57,269 bases of DNA, from positions 1 through 57,269 of IMG/VR virus record IMGVR_UViG_3300025120_000060; one strand, written 5' to 3'. The translations under genes were made by a program, and so were the position numbers. Positions within the stretch are counted from its first letter, which is position 1, and every line of letters begins with the position of its first letter. Below are positions 4,091-40,126 of this stretch, in pieces. The DNA comes from a virus (lineage: Duplodnaviria; Caudoviricetes). The notes beneath the pieces are model-generated. The model was not told the origin of the DNA. It saw only the letters and a list, made by a program, of their open reading frames with translations, and ran no database searches.

Positions 4091-4211
4091 GACAAAAAAC
4101 GTAGTGGGAAGAAAAATGCGCGGTGGCGGTAAGGTTATGCCTATGATGAAGGGTGGCGGTAAAGTCACTAAAAAAGGCAAGAAAAAATCTGTCGTTAAAA
4201 AAAGAGGATAA
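4080..4211 (+). CDS. Small Lys/Gly-rich peptide (MxGGGKV twice)
   Basis: Hand-translated 43 aa; AGGAG upstream. Confidence 0.6.
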   Translation: MRGKTKNVVGRKMRGGGKVMPMMKGGGKVTKKGKKKSVVKKRG

Positions 4212-4216
4212 TTTAG

Positions 4217-4888
4217 ATGGCCACGTCTGGAACAACAACTTTTAATTTAGAGCTTGATGATATTATTCAAGATGCTTATGAAAGATGTGGCTTATCTGGA
4301 AGTAGAACAGGTTATCAACTACAGTCTGCTAGAAGAAGTTTAAACCTTCTGTTATCCGAATGGGGTAACAGAGGAGTTCATATTTGGAAAGTAGAAAACC
4401 ATACTCAAAATCTTACAGCAGGTACAACTACCTACACAGCACCTTCAGATGCTAGTGACGTATTAGAAATGGTTTTTAGAAATGGTAGCACAGATACTAC
4501 AATGACAAAAGTTTCAAGATCAGAGTATCAAGCAATACCTAATAAAAGTTCTCAAGGACAACCAACTCAATATTTTATTCAACGAAATTTATCTAATGTA
4601 ACAATTACATTGTACTTAACTCCTAATACTACAGATACTCAAATTAATTATTATTATTTAGGAAGAATAGAAGACGCGGGTGCTTACACAAACAATCCAG
4701 ATGCACCTTATAGATTTTTACCTTGCATGGTTTCAGGCCTTGCGTATTTTTTATCACAAAAAATTTCTCCAGAAAGAACTCAGTCTTTAAAATTATACTA
4801 TGAAGACGAAATGCAAAGAGCGTTAACTGAAGACAGTCAATCAACTTCTGTTCACATAGTTCCACAAAATTATTTCGTAGGTAGCTAA
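4217..4888 (+). CDS. Head-tail connector / tail tubular protein A-like
   Basis: MATSGTTTF, ARRSLNLLLSEWGNRG, GQPTQYF; position after the head genes. Confidence 0.7.
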   Translation: MATSGTTTFNLELDDIIQDAYERCGLSGSRTGYQLQSARRSLNLLLSEWGNRGVHIWKVENHTQNLTAGTTTYTAPSDASDVLEMVFRNGSTDTTMTKVSRSEYQAIPNKSSQGQPTQYFIQRNLSNVTITLYLTPNTTDTQINYYYLGRIEDAGAYTNNPDAPYRFLPCMVSGLAYFLSQKISPERTQSLKLYYEDEMQRALTEDSQSTSVHIVPQNYFVGS

Positions 4889-4889
4889 C

Positions 4890-5222
4890 ATGGGTGCTTT
4901 TGCTAATGGTAAATACGCCATAGCGTTATGTGATCGTTGCGGTCAACAATATGATTTTCACAGGCTTAGAGAAGAATGGAATGGTTTAATGACTTGTCCG
5001 GAATGCTTTGAAACAAAGCATCCACAATTAGACCCGCCTCATCACAATGCAGATCCTCAAGCTCTTCCCTGGACAAGACCCGCTAGACAAGAACCTATGA
5101 CTGTATTTGTTTCTGCACCGGGAGACACTTCGTTTGAGTCAAACGGTATGATGCCGTCTACTCCAAGTAGATCGTTGATTATTGGTTCAAGTGTTGGTAA
5201 AGTGACTGTGGTAATATCATGA
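4890..5222 (+). CDS. Virion-module protein with CxxC...CxxC
   Basis: CDRCG...EWNGLMTCPECFETKHPQL. Confidence 0.65.
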   Translation: MGAFANGKYAIALCDRCGQQYDFHRLREEWNGLMTCPECFETKHPQLDPPHHNADPQALPWTRPARQEPMTVFVSAPGDTSFESNGMMPSTPSRSLIIGSSVGKVTVVIS

Positions 5223-5914
5223 ATTATTCTGAACTTTTAGACAATGTAAGAAACTACACAGAAGTAACAAGTGACGTTCTATCTAACAGTGTCATCAATG
5301 TTTTTCTTACTAACATTGAAAATAAAATAGATAGAGCAATTGACGGTGATTATCAAAGAAGATTTGCAACATCTACCTTTGAGGCAAACAATGCTTTTTT
5401 AGACGTATCTGGGCCCGAAGGCGGATTCAGATTTGCTAGAGCTCTACAGTTAGTTGAAACAGACGGAACAAGAACTTGGCTTGAACAAAAAGACACAACT
5501 TTTATGGATGAATACTCTCCTGAGAGATCTACCACAGATACAAATTTTACAGGTAAACCTAAATATTGGGGTAATTGGGATGCTACCACTTTAATTGTAG
5601 CTCCTACTCCAAACGCAGCTTACACAGTTGAGATGTGGTATCAAGAAACTCCTGAAAGATTGGGCAACGGCACTGGCTCTACTAGTACAACAACTTTTAT
5701 ATCCAATAAAGCACCTGAGGTACTTTTGTACGGAACTTTAGCAGAAACGTTTTCTTACTTGAAAAACACACAGGATATGCAAGTATACGATCAGAAGTTT
5801 CAAGCTGCCTTAAGCGAGTTTGCTCAAGAGCAGATGGGACGTAAACGTAGAGATGAGTATGTAGACGGTGTCTTAAGACTCCCTCTAAGATCAGTAGACC
5901 CAGGAGGTAAATAA
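5219..5914 (+). CDS. Head-tail adaptor / tail tubular protein
   Basis: GKPKYW, VAPTP, PEVLLYGTL motifs. Confidence 0.7.
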   Translation: MNYSELLDNVRNYTEVTSDVLSNSVINVFLTNIENKIDRAIDGDYQRRFATSTFEANNAFLDVSGPEGGFRFARALQLVETDGTRTWLEQKDTTFMDEYSPERSTTDTNFTGKPKYWGNWDATTLIVAPTPNAAYTVEMWYQETPERLGNGTGSTSTTTFISNKAPEVLLYGTLAETFSYLKNTQDMQVYDQKFQAALSEFAQEQMGRKRRDEYVDGVLRLPLRSVDPGGK

Positions 5915-35695: not shown

Positions 35696-35848
35696 ATGAC
35701 AGACATATCAAGGTACAAGTCTGTAGCTATTAAAAAAGATAGTTACAAAAAACTAAAAGGCATGGCAGATCAAGATTACAGATCAGTGGCAGGCTTTATA
35801 GAATACTTAATAGACAAAGAAATAGAGGAGAGAAGAAATGCCAAGTAA
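35696..35848 (+). CDS. Ribbon-helix-helix (CopG/Arc-like) DNA-binding protein
   Basis: YKSVAI beta strand then LKGMA...RSVAGFIEYLI; start refined to ATG 35696. Confidence 0.65.
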   Translation: MTDISRYKSVAIKKDSYKKLKGMADQDYRSVAGFIEYLIDKEIEERRNAK

Positions 35849-36464
35849 GAAAGAACCAGAAAACATTACAGTCCCAGGCGTGGTGCTACAAGACTGTGTA
35901 ATAACACTCAAAGGTGATTCACCTTTAATATGCAACAAATGGTCAGAGAAGGCCAAACAAGAAATAAGAGATAAGCAGATGAAGATAGCTAAAGCTGCGG
36001 GTAGACAAGCTAAGGATCCTGAAAAATGTTTTAGAGATTCTTTATATCAAATGCCAAATGGTAAAGATTACGGCTTCCCGGCTATTGCTTTTAAAGCTGC
36101 TGCTGTGAATGCTTGTTCTCACATTGATGGTCTTACAAAGGTCTCGGCTCGTGGATCATTTCACATTCCGTGTGACTTAATTAAGATCATTGGTAAACCA
36201 GTCATGAGAGAAGACATGGTGCGTGTTGGTATGGGTGCCGCTGATCTTAGATACAGAGGTGAGTTTACTAAATGGGAAGCTGAAGTTCCTGTAAGATACA
36301 ACGGAAATGCCTGGTCAATTGAACAATTGATTAACGTTTTTAACGTAGCGGGGTTTGCGTCTGGTGTTGGTGAATGGAGACCGCAAAAGAACGGTAACTT
36401 TGGAATGTTCAAAGTAACTAATGTAACAAAAATCGAAAGAAAGAAAGAGGTAAAAGTTGCGTAG
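35838..36464 (+). CDS. RAMP/Cas7-like RNA-binding protein (Vipr-like effector)
   Basis: ITLKGDSPLI first strand; FPAIAFKAA equivalent to the RAMP P.ss.KG helix; C-terminal G-rich loop AGFASGVGEWRPQKNGNFGMFKV. Confidence 0.75.
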   Translation: MPSKKEPENITVPGVVLQDCVITLKGDSPLICNKWSEKAKQEIRDKQMKIAKAAGRQAKDPEKCFRDSLYQMPNGKDYGFPAIAFKAAAVNACSHIDGLTKVSARGSFHIPCDLIKIIGKPVMREDMVRVGMGAADLRYRGEFTKWEAEVPVRYNGNAWSIEQLINVFNVAGFASGVGEWRPQKNGNFGMFKVTNVTKIERKKEVKVA

Positions 36465-36966
36465 AAAAATAATACAGTCCTATCAATTTAGGGGCAGCAA
36501 GACAACAAAGTATTCAGTGGACGCTCAAGTTGTTGGAGAAGAACTTGAAGCGATAACTAACAAGCACGGGACACTCAATCCACACGTTGTGGTGAAGGCG
36601 GCAGAAAGAAAGAGTTCGCCGCTTCACAAGTGCTTCACGTGGGATGATGCTTCTGCTGCAGATAAGCATCGGTTGCACGAAGCAAGGATGCTCATTGGTT
36701 CTGTCATGGTCGTCACGCAGCATGTAGACGAACCGGTGCGTGCTTTCCATAGTGTAAAGGTGACTACGTCGAACGGAGATGACGACACATCTGAGCGTAG
36801 TTACGTTCCATTGGATATTGCGTTGAGCGATGATGATTATCGAAGGCAGATCTTAGAACAGGCTGCCAGAGATCTTCATACTTGGAGAAGAAAATATGGG
36901 GAACTAAGAGAACTTCATAAATTTTTCTCTGAGGCTCAGCGTATCATTGATAAGTATGCAGCTTAA
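36457..36966 (+). CDS. Partner protein of the RAMP-like gene, function unknown
   Basis: LNPHVVV..A...SPLHKCFTWDD..AA..HRL.EAR.LI motif; overlaps the RAMP-like stop. Confidence 0.7.
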   Translation: MRRKIIQSYQFRGSKTTKYSVDAQVVGEELEAITNKHGTLNPHVVVKAAERKSSPLHKCFTWDDASAADKHRLHEARMLIGSVMVVTQHVDEPVRAFHSVKVTTSNGDDDTSERSYVPLDIALSDDDYRRQILEQAARDLHTWRRKYGELRELHKFFSEAQRIIDKYAA

Positions 36967-37127
36967 CAGGCATACTAGATGTAGTGGTGTTGCAAAAACG
37001 CAACACCACATATAGAGGAAGGATTAATTAATTATGAAAAAATATACTTATAAACATATCATAGAAATTTTATTAAAAAAAGAGGGTTGGATTAGAGTTC
37101 CTCTTTATTTACCTACGAGGGTTATCG

Positions 37128-37334
37128 ATGGCAAGTAGTGATGAATACTATGAAGAGAAGGTAAACGAGTTACGTGAATTGTATGACCATCTCGAAAATG
37201 CTTTGATAGCAGTCAGTAATGCTTCTCGATGTAAAGGTCGATTGCATTTACAGAAAGATCAACAAGATGAAATGAATACCATGATATTGGACCTTGAAGA
37301 TCTGTTGGCTACAGTCGATGACATAGAACCTTAG
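37128..37334 (+). CDS. Small acidic helical protein
   Basis: GAGG RBS; its TAG stop overlaps the first base of the array. Confidence 0.6.
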   Translation: MASSDEYYEEKVNELRELYDHLENALIAVSNASRCKGRLHLQKDQQDEMNTMILDLEDLLATVDDIEP

Positions 37335-37799
37335 GCAGGCTTAGCGAGGCTAGTTATGGCCCGGTGAGGTGAGTTTTTGGTGAGGCAGGCAAGGTCAGGT
37401 TTTGCGGGGTAAGGTGCGGTGTGGAGCGGTGTGTCAAGGCAGGATAGGTAAGGCGAGCATTGTTCAGGATCGGTTTGATTGCGGCAGGCGTGGTAAGTTA
37501 GGGACAGGACAGGTAGGGCCTGGATTGGTGTGGATTGGCGAGGCAGGCGAGGTGAGGTTTGTTGCGTTTTGATATGTTGAGTTTAGTTGAGGCAGGCGTG
37601 TTGAGGTCGGGTACGTTCTGGTGGTGTAAGGTGTGGTGATACAGGAGTGGTAAGTTTGAGTGAGGTATGGTCGGGTTTGTTGCGGCAGGCGGGGTGAGGT
37701 GCGTTCAGGTGAGGAGTGTTATTGGTATGTTGAGGCAGGCCAGGTATGTCCAGGTTTGGTATGATCCGGACGGGTAAGGCAAGTTAAGGTAAGGCCGGA
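37334..37799 (+). ncRNA. Array of nine GGCAGG-delimited units of (GGY-NN)n pentamers; putative guide-RNA array
   Basis: Delimiters at 37334, 37384, 37438, 37483, 37542, 37591, 37640 (TACAGG), 37684, 37734 and 37793 (GGCCGG); 5-nt periodicity; no ORF in track. Confidence 0.8.
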
Positions 37800-37810
37800 A
37801 AGGAGATAGC

Positions 37811-37951
37811 ATGGAAAAACTCATGACTGGTAGCCGGGCAATGAAAATTGTCAAGGATTACATAATTAAGGATATTGCCGACGAGGACGTTACAGTAGCG
37901 GTTCTTGCGTTGGAGAAATATATAAAAAGTTTGGAAAAGAGTGTTAAGTGA
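37811..37951 (+). CDS. Small hypothetical protein (46 aa)
   Basis: AAGGAG RBS immediately after the array; hand translation MEKLMTGSRAMKIVK... Confidence 0.6.
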   Translation: MEKLMTGSRAMKIVKDYIIKDIADEDVTVAVLALEKYIKSLEKSVK

Positions 37952-38074
37952 GATAGTCTATCACTCGGATTATCAATCCCACCCTAATCCAAAGGGTCGA
38001 CACCTGGTCTTTAGCCTCTTAACCCAGGTACGTGGTGTGACTGATGGAGAGACATCAACCAAGAAAGGAAAGAG

Positions 38075-38242
38075 ATGAACAAGACTATAGACAAACTCGT
38101 TAAGACAAAAAGATCAAAAGAAGTAGACAAGATAGAAGAGATGAAGTTAAAAAATATTATTGAAGTTGCTGTAAGAAAACGAGCTCCAGAGTGGTTAAAA
38201 GAACTTATCAAGGCCGACGACGCACGGATCACGAAACATTAA
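38075..38242 (+). CDS. Small hypothetical protein (55 aa)
   Basis: AAGGA RBS; MNKTIDKLVKTK... Confidence 0.55.
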   Translation: MNKTIDKLVKTKRSKEVDKIEEMKLKNIIEVAVRKRAPEWLKELIKADDARITKH

Positions 38243-38319
38243 AATGTCAATAGTAAAGAGTATTTGCTGTTGGGATTCTAATTTTATATATTGATCGTTC
38301 GCGCAAAATGGAGGTCAAA

Positions 38320-38451
38320 ATGGAAGAACTACAGGAAAAATATGAAGGTGCTTTGGAGGCGATAGCCTACCTGCACAATGAACTACTGGCTGTAAAGCAT
38401 TGTCAATGTGATGATGAAACAGTCGAAACTGAAGAGGATAGCGGGGCCTAG
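38320..38451 (+). CDS. Small acidic protein (43 aa)
   Basis: GGAGG RBS; own promoter-like TTGCTG-N17-TATATT. Confidence 0.6.
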   Translation: MEELQEKYEGALEAIAYLHNELLAVKHCQCDDETVETEEDSGA

Positions 38452-38667
38452 TTATAGGCCTTCGTGTCCTTGCTCAAAGTACTTATTCTTTAAGTGCCTC
38501 TCCCAAAAATCTTTGCCGTTGGCAACAATAGTATTCCATTCACGATGATTAAATCGTTCTGTAGAACCATTCTTGTACTCAACCTCGTAAACCATTTCAT
38601 GGCCCACTGAAGAATCTGTTTGTAGCTCATACACTTTAAGGTTTTTAATTATATCTTTTAGCTTCAT
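38452..38667 (-). CDS. Hypothetical protein
   Basis: Clean ORF in the minus-strand mini-operon. Confidence 0.65.
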   Translation of the reverse strand: MKLKDIIKNLKVYELQTDSSVGHEMVYEVEYKNGSTERFNHREWNTIVANGKDFWERHLKNKYFEQGHEGL

Positions 38668-38926
38668 TGTAAGTTAAATACCTTACTTCTTTTACCATAC
38701 CTTTGGGAATAATTGCAACCCTTCCTCCCTCGTCAAAACCATCATCACACCAGTCAGCCATCAGGGACATTTCTTCTTCGTCGTCTTTTACTAGCCAACC
38801 TATAGAAAAACAGCCGGCAGCGGTCTTTTTAATTATATCTTTGTATGCTGCCCAACCGGAAAAAGGTTCAGTCGCATCTTTCCATCGGACTATCACAATC
38901 GGACAAGTCTTCAGGTTAAATTTCAT
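38645..38926 (-). CDS. Conserved phage hypothetical protein
   Basis: VRWKDA...W...SIGWL...IPKGMV motif. Confidence 0.7.
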   Translation of the reverse strand: MKFNLKTCPIVIVRWKDATEPFSGWAAYKDIIKKTAAGCFSIGWLVKDDEEEMSLMADWCDDGFDEGGRVAIIPKGMVKEVRYLTYNEAKRYN

Positions 38927-39555
38927 TTGATTAATATATTTTGTCCCGGGACTAGTTTGCTACAAATAGGCACTTCTGTTTTTTTTGAGACACTAAACCA
39001 TTGTTCACGACCGACGATATAATCTGTTGCACTAGCGTCGACGCATTTTTTTGAGCCTATGGTATCAGTCACGGCTTGTTGTACAGAAGCCAGGGACATG
39101 TCATCACCGACCATGGACCCGCCGTCTTTAAGCTTGGGCCACCAGTTCATTATGTCATCCATGACTGCTTCGTATTCATGGGCTCCATCAATAATGATAC
39201 CTTGAAAGTGTTTATCATTGAATCTTGCCAGGGTGTTTACATCATCTGATCTACATTTAAGCGGTGTAAGAACGCCTTTGTCTATGTATTCTTGACAGTT
39301 TTTTAGAAAAATATCGTAGTAAGTTGTGCCTGTATCTAAGTCAGCATGTTCAGAGCTACCTTCAAAAGTGTCTAGTGCGTATAGGTGAACTTTTTTTCCA
39401 GAGTTGATAATGTTTGTTGATATGTAGGATGTGGATCGACCCATGAAAGGACCTATCTCTAAAATTTCATCACCATCTTCACAGTGATCAAGTATCTGGT
39501 CATATGCTTCGTGCATATTGAACCAACCCGGTATCGTAAAATATTTGTGTTTCAT
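38923..39555 (-). CDS. Class I SAM-dependent methyltransferase (Methyltransf_24-like)
   Basis: LEIGPFMGRST, DTFEGS, IDGAHEYE, GGSMVGDD; start refined to 39555. Confidence 0.85.
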   Translation of the reverse strand: MKHKYFTIPGWFNMHEAYDQILDHCEDGDEILEIGPFMGRSTSYISTNIINSGKKVHLYALDTFEGSSEHADLDTGTTYYDIFLKNCQEYIDKGVLTPLKCRSDDVNTLARFNDKHFQGIIIDGAHEYEAVMDDIMNWWPKLKDGGSMVGDDMSLASVQQAVTDTIGSKKCVDASATDYIVGREQWFSVSKKTEVPICSKLVPGQNILIK

Positions 39556-39682
39556 TTTCTCTCTTTTTTCTGAGACTCGTGAGTCTAGACTGATCTTGCG
39601 GAGACAAGTTTTAATTGTTACAAAGGAGGAACACCTCACGAATCTCGTTGCAATAATATCTGATTAATAGCATATTGAAAGC

Positions 39683-39886
39683 ATGAAATACTTCCTAATT
39701 ATATGGTTGTGTGTCAATGATCCTAATGTTTCTTTGAAAAATACCTGTGAACAGGTGATCTTGGACAATGAATCATACAATACCATGTACGAGTGTGCGA
39801 AAGATGGGGCTGATTTATATAAACAATTAGAACCAATGGGTAATGTATATTTGACAACCTTTTGTTCATTAAAGCCTGCAGTGTAA
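39683..39886 (+). CDS. Small Cys-containing, possibly secreted protein
   Basis: Hydrophobic N-terminus; 4 Cys. Confidence 0.6.
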   Translation: MKYFLIIWLCVNDPNVSLKNTCEQVILDNESYNTMYECAKDGADLYKQLEPMGNVYLTTFCSLKPAV

Positions 39887-40126
39887 CTTGTGCATATAGT
39901 ATTAAATATATAAATACAAAAATAAAAAAATAAATTAGCCGAAATGTTACGTAACACTATAAATATACTACTATTAGTATTGAGTATAAACAATTTGAGG
40001 GTGTTACGTGGGTGTAACGTGAGGGTCAATTGTAACGTTACGTTGGGATATATTGGGTATTGATATAGCTTATTTTTACCTTAAAGTGTATCTACATGAC
40101 AGAAAACCACGTTACAGACGTTACAA
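39881..40126. repeat. GTAAC/GTTAC iteron-like cluster with AT-rich tract (candidate origin)
   Basis: TGTTACGTAACA 39945, GTAACGTTAC 40032 and further copies; A/T tract ~39895-39936. Confidence 0.5.

Follow-up and report, generated by a model that had tools for sequence, protein, structure and literature searches.

A staggered GGY/NN array in an uncultured marine phage, very probably encoding guide RNAs of the VIPR family

Viral Interference Programmable Repeat (VIPR) is a phage system that was first described in 2026 from the E. coli phage SUSP1 and a Pseudomonas fulva prophage (bioRxiv 10.64898/2026.04.26.720920). According to the accessible portion of this preprint, Vipr is a minimal RAMP protein of ~20 kDa with an RRM core, a glycine-rich loop, and a thumb, and the vrRNA consists of at least 4, typically 9–16, tandem YNNGG repeats, in which GGY is conserved and NN is variable. 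The repeats lie in intergenic DNA that flanks vipr, on the strand of that gene, and the vrRNAs are reported to be expressed, to be processed, and to co-purify with Vipr. Only the NN bases pair with one strand of double-stranded DNA, one target base being skipped between successive pairs (the 1-nt skip rule), and the skipped bases are mostly codon wobble positions. The targets are described as competing phages, satellites, and prophages, which are repressed, with no self-targeting; those of SUSP1 and P. fulva are mostly satellite and prophage regulators. In a two-gene operon, vipr is joined by an accessory gene (vap1–6), and vap1 is reported to enhance repression. Seven VIPR types are distinguished, including staggered arrays with a 1-nt vrRNA overlap (fig. 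S18 legend; 10.64898/2026.04.26.720920). A second preprint, likewise accessible in part, provides the structural basis of the skip rule: it assigns one Vipr protomer to each repeat, with R138, D177, W178, and R179 holding the GGY, and reports that SUSP1 Vipr sequesters the G-G-Y bases in a flipped-out state and displays the two N bases (10.64898/2026.04.26.720927). Here, a region of IMG/VR virus record IMGVR_UViG_3300025120_000060 (Duplodnaviria; Caudoviricetes) is compared with these systems; the window analyzed is the whole stretch of 57,269 nt. We conclude with high confidence that the region, at positions 37334–37792, is the guide-RNA array of a VIPR system in an uncultured marine phage.

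By dynamic-programming parse, the region resolves into nine abutting units, each of which consists of GGCA followed by 8–11 pentamers of the form G-[G/T]-[C/T]-N-N; unit 7 has the head TACA instead. The register slips by −1 (GGCA) at every unit boundary. The NN strings that the initial annotation had quoted for units 2, 6, and 9 were reproduced exactly by this parse. The array and its units are as follows.

37334–37792, + strand: probable vrRNA array, staggered, of nine units (parse, periodicity, and relatives)
37334–37383, + strand: unit 1, 9 NN, with one irregular pentamer and one 6-nt step; relatives have related types with other first and eighth NN
37384–37437, + strand: unit 2, 10 NN
37438–37482, + strand: unit 3, 8 NN
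37483–37541, + strand: unit 4, 11 NN
37542–37590, + strand: unit 5, 9 NN; pentamers mostly GTT, not GGY
37591–37639, + strand: unit 6, 9 NN
37640–37683, + strand: unit 7, 8 NN, with the degenerate head TACA for GGCA
37684–37733, + strand: unit 8, 9 NN
37734–37792, + strand: unit 9, 9 NN that fit the HIT motif, plus 2 more pentamers

The 5-nt periodicity of the array is far above background, with autocorrelations of 0.46 and 0.45 at lags 5 and 10, respectively, compared with 0.24 at lags 2–3. Runs of at least 4 G[GT][CT]NN pentamers occur 8 times in the window, all on the + strand and all within 37348–37797, and the word GGCAGG stands at 37334, 37384, 37438, 37483, 37542, 37591, 37684, and 37734. 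Across the pentamers, position 1 is G in 89%, position 2 is G in 69% or T in 25%, and position 3 is T or C in 85%, while the NN positions are mixed; the base composition over 455 bases is 197 G, 125 T, 83 A, and 50 C. Tandem Repeats Finder reported no tandem repeat in the array, the units being too dissimilar. Rfam at E ≤ 10 gave three chance matches, all outside the array, and blastn of 35800–39700 against the phage collection returned no match. A literature search for the word GGCAGGC in phages brought up, among the papers listed, nothing relevant by title or abstract.

Two protein genes lie upstream on the same strand, the array starting 870 nt past the first and 368 nt past the second.

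35838–36464, + strand: vipr, coding for a 208-residue minimal RAMP protein, a Vipr homologue (phmmer, profile, structure model, and Foldseek)
36457–36966, + strand: partner gene for a 169-residue, vap-like accessory protein; it overlaps the end of vipr by 8 nt and is a conserved neighbor

In a phmmer search of the PDB, the 208-residue protein matched the SUSP1 Vipr protein (36pp_D) at E = 8.3e-4 over ~65 aligned residues, and a profile of 46 homologues matched 36pp at E = 3.2e-8 over residues 129–194. Within this stretch, R140 and E179-W180-R181 align to R138 and D177-W178-R179 of SUSP1 Vipr, with D changed to E at 179; H17, K33, and E71/M72 lie outside it. The thumb Arg and the acid-Trp-Arg of the glycine-rich loop are invariant or nearly so in the family of the window Vipr, and so is the loop motif G-x-G-E-W-R-P. 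The AlphaFold2 (AF2) model of the protein has a predicted local distance difference test (pLDDT) score of 81, and Foldseek placed Cas7-type RAMPs of type VII and type III Csm complexes at the top of 74 matches at E ≤ 0.001 (E ~4e-6, probability 1.0, TM ~0.5). The protein is thus predicted by the model to adopt a Cas7/Csm3-like fold. The family counts 7110 homologues at E ≤ 0.001, and among the 120 listed, “hypothetical protein” is the only name.

The 169-residue protein matches PHROG 15946, a family of unknown function. A Pfam scan gave no match, a sequence comparison with the PDB gave nothing below E = 0.048, and its AF2 model (pLDDT 78) had no PDB fold match below E = 0.5, the best Foldseek match being a weak one of winged-helix type (E = 0.54). 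The gene appears to behave as an accessory gene of the system, since a homologue adjoins vipr on the same strand in 45 of the 49 Vipr-bearing loci found through the array pattern, and a Vipr-profile match is present in 77 of 80 loci found through the 169-residue protein.

The link between the array and vipr extends well beyond this phage. When viral contigs were searched for a unit start followed by two GGT pentamers, the pattern was found in at least 119, and among the matches listed, 64 have arrays and span 37–71% GC. A Vipr-profile open reading frame (ORF) is present in 48 of these 64 array loci and in 1 of the 54 non-array matches listed (Fisher p = 7e-18); the array and the Vipr ORF share a strand in all 48 listed loci, at a median distance of 0.5 kb. 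The 16 listed array loci without a Vipr match include arrays at contig ends. Membership of the locus in the VIPR family is well supported. Taken together, the array, the vipr gene, and the partner gene constitute a staggered-array VIPR system that differs from the characterized type II; it is not filed under that type because its units abut and only GGCA is constant between them.

Several of the loci that turned up in these searches are organized differently. Some viral contigs of 56–68% GC (L184, L128, and L193, among others) carry far larger arrays, with up to 30 GGCAGG near the match, and L184 has two adjacent Vipr-profile ORFs. In the ~80-kb viral contigs of the series L011–L080, a gene of the 169-residue family is followed ~1 kb downstream by a distant Vipr-profile match (E 2e-5 to 1e-18); a period-5 scan of the series revealed no GGY/NN array except in L023, itself not an ~80-kb contig. 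These loci may rely on repeats of a different consensus or on one short vrRNA. In L023, a GC-rich distant relative whose partner protein is 37% identical, short GGCNN arrays occupy three intergenic gaps within 4100–5760: one ahead of vipr, one separating it from the partner gene, and one past the latter.

Comparison with the relatives indicates which bases of the units are under constraint. With the 169-residue protein as the probe, 80 IMG/VR loci were kept, of which 10 are close relatives at 88–90% identity. The array is at the same place in nine of these; the tenth locus ends before that point. The relatives’ arrays comprise 5–9 units over 257–494 nt, and the unit types are kept while their presence and order vary. 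Orthologous units were compared in 49 pairs, which are not independent of one another, drawn from 55 distinct unit sequences in 15 related arrays. Differences per site amounted to 0/208 for GGCA, 1.6% at pentamer position 1, 10.4% at position 2, and 13.3% at position 3, against 4.9% and 3.6% at the two N positions. The NN string of unit 7 is identical in 14 arrays. The NN bases are more strongly constrained than scaffold positions 2 and 3, and this lower divergence implies that the NN positions carry information.

Units also appear to come and go as wholes. Contigs of two RNA libraries of one study join 37732 directly to 37792, with 4 bases shared at the joint, and leave out exactly 37733–37791 (59 nt, unit 9), so unit 9 is a presence/absence polymorphism. 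As the omission falls at a GGCA boundary, whole guides are gained or lost at such boundaries. What these contigs show is unit-level polymorphism, not transcription.

In four close relatives, the 68-residue ORF that precedes the array in the window is replaced by a tRNA-Cys (GCA) gene that ends 5 nt before unit 1; tRNA processing there could thus provide the first guide with its 5′ cut.

L001, 5880–5953: tRNA-Cys (GCA)
L003, 3299–3372: tRNA-Cys (GCA)
L004, 1615–1688: tRNA-Cys (GCA)
L006, 3092–3165: tRNA-Cys (GCA)

By analogy with the published system, each unit would act as one guide, its 8–11 NN specifying 16–22 bases that would be read as NNxNNx, and the GGCA steps are candidates for a role in processing. 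Once bound, the guides would repress transcription in competing phages, satellites, or prophages. As the skipped base would mostly be a wobble base, each guide would amount to the specification of a short peptide motif. Unit 9 would translate into H-I-H-L-I-P-R-K-K/N, the catalytic histidine-triad motif, unit 6 may be directed at an SPFH/Band-7 lipoprotein gene, and unit 7 at genes for virion or ejection proteins. The initial annotation had arrived at such a reading from the letters of the window alone: NN-x-NN-x, with the skipped base at codon position 3, so that targeting would resist synonymous escape. This coincides with the 1-nt skip rule in the accessible part of the VIPR preprint and is further supported by the Vipr homologue in the window. 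The wobble-skipping proposal was essentially right, but the code had already been published for VIPR; reasoning from the raw sequence had recovered a real recognition code.

Candidate targets were sought in sequence collections by exact gapped-pattern matching only. For unit 9 with a 1-nt skip, where the eighth NN was either that of the window or the relatives’ variant, IMG/VR contains 5 exact matches, 4 of which coincide, in frame, with the H-x-H-x-H motif encoded by viral HIT-domain genes. All four encode small HIT-domain proteins (Pfam PF01230, E 5e-9 to 1e-22) and match at ..PH[LVI]HIHLIPR[KY][KN]GD.., in three DNA versions that differ at skipped bases. The likeness of unit 9 to a HIT motif, noted from its NN string alone, thus extends to real HIT-domain genes. 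The window unit 9 agrees with two HIT alleles (R-K-K and R-K-N) at 18/18 bases, and the relatives’ variant agrees with the other two (R-Y-K) at 18/18. The target records are a complete virus of 359,943 bp with terminal repeats, two fragments estimated as 11% and 20% complete, and a 6-kb contig; the three records fetched whole have 26–32% GC and the 6-kb locus 41%. In the prokaryote collection, the window unit 9 has 20 matches, of which 3 are HIT genes and the rest fall in mixed phases, so that the HIT share is 4/5 among viral and 3/20 among prokaryote matches (Fisher p = 0.012). From these sequence matches, HIT-domain genes of large (~360 kb), low-GC phages are likely the natural targets of unit 9.

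Units 6 and 7 likewise have same-family, wobble-aligned matches whose DNA differs at skipped bases. The first 8 NN of unit 6 have 10 exact matches in IMG/VR. Three are SPFH/Band-7 lipoprotein genes, at ..GVERTLGNVK.., two of which agree at 18/18 bases with the relatives’ 9-NN variant of unit 6 and at 17/18 with that of the window; of the others, two fall in a single family of virion proteins and one in a major head protein. Six of the 10 are wobble-aligned by the longest-open-frame rule, or seven if one frame is set by its PHROG match, and one match at 74% GC is ambiguous. Unit 7 has 10 exact IMG/VR matches. Four of them, in two DNA versions, fall on the opposite strand at ANRISQFT in virion structural or DNA-ejection proteins, with the skipped bases at wobble positions.

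Within the window itself, no self-target was found above chance with a 1-nt skip, the best sites agreeing at 12–15 of 16–22 bases; the maxima at skips of 0, 2, and 3 are similar, and, against a self-targeting threshold of 80% NN match, only unit 1 reaches 83% (15/18, one site). This accords with the initial annotation, which by eye had noted no full match in the phage’s own proteins. Its corollary that any targets would lie in other phages or the host fits unit 9, which matches HIT motifs of other viruses and not of this phage.

These results suggest a wider proposal, which we put forward as a possibility that we rate somewhat below even. In the staggered-array VIPR type, the guides may be aimed at peptide motifs that do not vary in the products of accessory and virion genes, namely the catalytic H-x-H-x-H core of HIT hydrolases, the N-terminal part of an SPFH lipoprotein, and proteins of the virion or of ejection, so that one 18-base gapped guide could cover competitors with very dissimilar DNA (26–66% GC). 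A 57-kb marine phage would in this manner silence a HIT-family gene of ~360-kb phages. Guide alleles would track target alleles (R-K-K versus R-Y-K), recombination at GGCA boundaries would add or remove entire guides, and, in some relatives, the tRNA-Cys 5 nt upstream would give the first processing cut.

A number of observations weigh against the interpretation of the locus as a VIPR array with these targets. On the protein side, sequence likeness to SUSP1 Vipr is confined to the C-terminal third. On the RNA side, many pentamers have T at position 2 (25%) or A at position 3 (14%), which makes the scaffold more degenerate than the wording of the published VIPR logo, and the units are without the ~40-nt 3′ tail or pseudoknot of the characterized type II vrRNAs. 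The evidence that bears on expression is limited to short contigs from three RNA libraries of two studies, which cover parts of the array and the next ORF; such libraries can contain DNA.

The match counts are also not in favor of the proposed targets. The initial annotation had expected gapped-pattern matches to exceed controls, which they did not: the 5 exact IMG/VR matches of unit 9 compare with 8 for one pattern of reversed NN order and 6 for one 2-nt-skip pattern. Three of the 8 reversed-order matches are identical DNA, only one is in frame (in a 54-codon open frame), and none form a family, while four of the 6 matches of the 2-nt-skip pattern are nearly identical DNA. The unit 9 matches differ from controls only in kind, as they are in frame, belong to one family, and vary at the skipped bases. 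The predicted codon-phase bias holds in part: 11–12 of 20 distinct matches of three guides are wobble-aligned, a modest excess over the expected 1/3 (p = 0.04–0.01) that is not significant against the single small control (1/6; p ~0.1). An 18-base pattern is expected to match large collections by chance, and 15 of the 20 prokaryote matches look random. Unit 2 (20 bases, 1-nt skip) has 0 exact matches in IMG/VR and unit 4 (22 bases) has 0 in metagenome contigs. Unit 8 (18 bases) has 87 exact metagenome matches over several unrelated families; among the 80 examined, 46 are out of phase on the opposite strand, many of them copies of one conserved gene, and 27 are in frame in several families, so that the matches single out no target gene. 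In SUSP1, several guides are described as converging on a target, unlike the situation here: when 38 distinct guides from the window and 14 related arrays were compared with four complete or partial target records (520 kb), no further guide converged on them, and only the two known guide types stood out. The four records were picked through 1-nt-skip matches; therefore, they provide no independent test of the skip length.

The most serious alternative follows from these counts, namely that the region is a VIPR array whose matches to HIT, SPFH, and virion genes reflect chance or database abundance, the real targets lying elsewhere, for example in regulators or promoters of competitors that the searched collections lack. 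Match numbers equal to or below those of controls, 18-base patterns that match at about the chance rate, and the absence of convergence on candidate target genomes are what such an explanation would predict. The same holds for unit 8, whose matches spread over many unrelated families and are commonest in an out-of-phase, over-represented gene, and for the satellite and prophage regulators that predominate among the SUSP1 and P. fulva targets in the accessible text of the preprint (10.64898/2026.04.26.720920). Chance would not readily place four of the five viral unit 9 matches on one catalytic motif, in frame, or give two guide variants that each fit a different natural allele at every base, when control matches are identical DNA copies or singletons in mixed phases; nor would it conserve NN positions between orthologous guides. 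We consider this explanation unlikely, though it deserves to be taken seriously.

Two further explanations dispense with guide-directed targeting altogether. In Bacillus, the trp leader RNA is bound by TRAP, a protein oligomer that reads (G/U)AG triplets two free bases apart, with a period of 5. A G/U-rich RNA might similarly titrate, or be coated by, an oligomeric RNA-binding protein with 5 nt per subunit, or it might serve as a ribosome sponge through Shine-Dalgarno-like AGGTG/GAGG, with NN having no role in targeting. The period of 5, the conserved triplet, and the acceptance of G or T at position 2, as by a protein pocket, would suit such a coat, and the array runs right up to the ribosome-binding site of the next ORF. 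The coating protein, however, is now identified as a Vipr-family RAMP, and NN bases more conserved than scaffold positions 2 and 3 are unexpected for a pure scaffold or sponge. Units of 8–11 or more pentamers vary in length; therefore, no fixed-size ring fits, and we regard this explanation as very improbable. A role as DNA, in the form of a replication origin, an R-loop or two-tetrad G-quadruplex element, or a recombination hot spot, could draw on the position of the array 2 kb downstream of the genes for primase, helicase, and PolA, on a GC skew of 0.43, and on GG dinucleotides every 5 nt that could form two-tetrad quadruplexes. Its probability is close to negligible, given that many pentamers contain no GG (unit 5 is mostly GTT), that, in phages of 37–71% GC, arrays are associated with vipr rather than with replication genes, and that in the distant relative L023 short arrays lie in three intergenic gaps around vipr and its partner. 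We also considered Chi-like sites, primase recognition sites, and a type III antitoxin mimic, and dropped them, as the vipr gene and the preprints explain the period and the conserved NN.

Interpreted as a VIPR array, the locus extends this family to an uncultured marine phage whose Vipr is distant and whose staggered array is compact, and it offers concrete natural candidate targets. A guide that coincides with the HIT catalytic motif hints at the accessory genes that count when marine phages compete, and illustrates the value of a wobble-skipping code, as escape would need a change of a catalytic residue.

The array lies between two small ORFs. On its 5′ side, the stop codon of the 68-residue ORF overlaps unit 1, and on its 3′ side, the ribosome-binding site of a 46-residue ORF follows directly after unit 9. 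Other neighbors are the primase, helicase, and PolA genes and a gene for a class I S-adenosylmethionine-dependent methyltransferase (38923–39639, − strand; Pfam Methyltransf_24, E = 2.3e-15), which is convergent on the array region. The promoter and terminator scans of the sequence remained at the shuffle level (8 found versus 6.7 expected, and 1 versus 1.3, respectively). The stretch is present in marine and viral metagenome runs. One inverted repeat was read from the sequence between the protein genes and the array.

36984–37009, + strand: perfect 10-bp hairpin with a 6-nt loop and no T run, just 3′ of the partner gene

The terminator scan did not call this hairpin, which, placed as it is between the protein genes and the array, might serve in processing or stability. 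Further downstream, the ~120 nt at 37952–38074, which follow the 46-residue ORF, are nearly unchanged in relatives and contain inverted repeats, as well as an overlapping 45-codon GTG frame; this segment could be a structured RNA or a small gene. At 40014–40124, 5 of the 9 GTAACGT words of the window are clustered on both strands (shuffles give a mean of 3.6 words per window). The cluster lies at the turn from minus-strand genes to the next plus-strand block, the word also occurs within an AT-rich stretch of relatives, and the segment is a candidate regulatory or origin region.

Among known systems, the closest are the type II VIPR loci of SUSP1 and P. fulva, as described in the accessible portions of the preprints. 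The window shares with them a small RAMP gene beside non-coding GGY/NN arrays, encoded by a phage and without self-targeting, and has candidate NNx matches in coding DNA that, as in those systems, skip the wobble base. The Arg and the acid-Trp-Arg by which SUSP1 Vipr binds GGY are conserved in the window Vipr, which is otherwise only distantly similar (single-sequence E = 8.3e-4). Unlike the ~100-nt vrRNAs of type II with 9–16 repeats, the units of the window measure 44–59 nt, abut with a GGCA step, and have 8–11 repeats per guide. The partner gene belongs to the 169-residue family without a significant fold match, and the host is an uncultured marine organism. The array also resembles the staggered vrRNA arrays mentioned in the legend of fig. 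S18, whose shared 1-nt boundary overlap fits the −1 slip at each GGCA.

The Vipr fold also recalls the backbone of class 1 CRISPR-Cas complexes, the Cas7/Csm3 filaments, in which the thumb periodically interrupts guide–target pairing. In contrast to class 1 CRISPR-Cas, the guide has a period of 5 nt with 2 paired bases per repeat, and the target is double-stranded DNA read with a 1-nt gap, as known from the accessible VIPR texts. The array was not assigned to CRISPR: identical repeats of 23–50 nt with spacers are absent, the constant element being only 4–7 nt, and the neighbors are primase, helicase, PolA, and methyltransferase genes, not adaptation or nuclease genes. From the TRAP leader, finally, the array is distinguished by its GGY triplet, by free bases that are conserved between orthologues and match foreign genes, and by a protein that is a RAMP.

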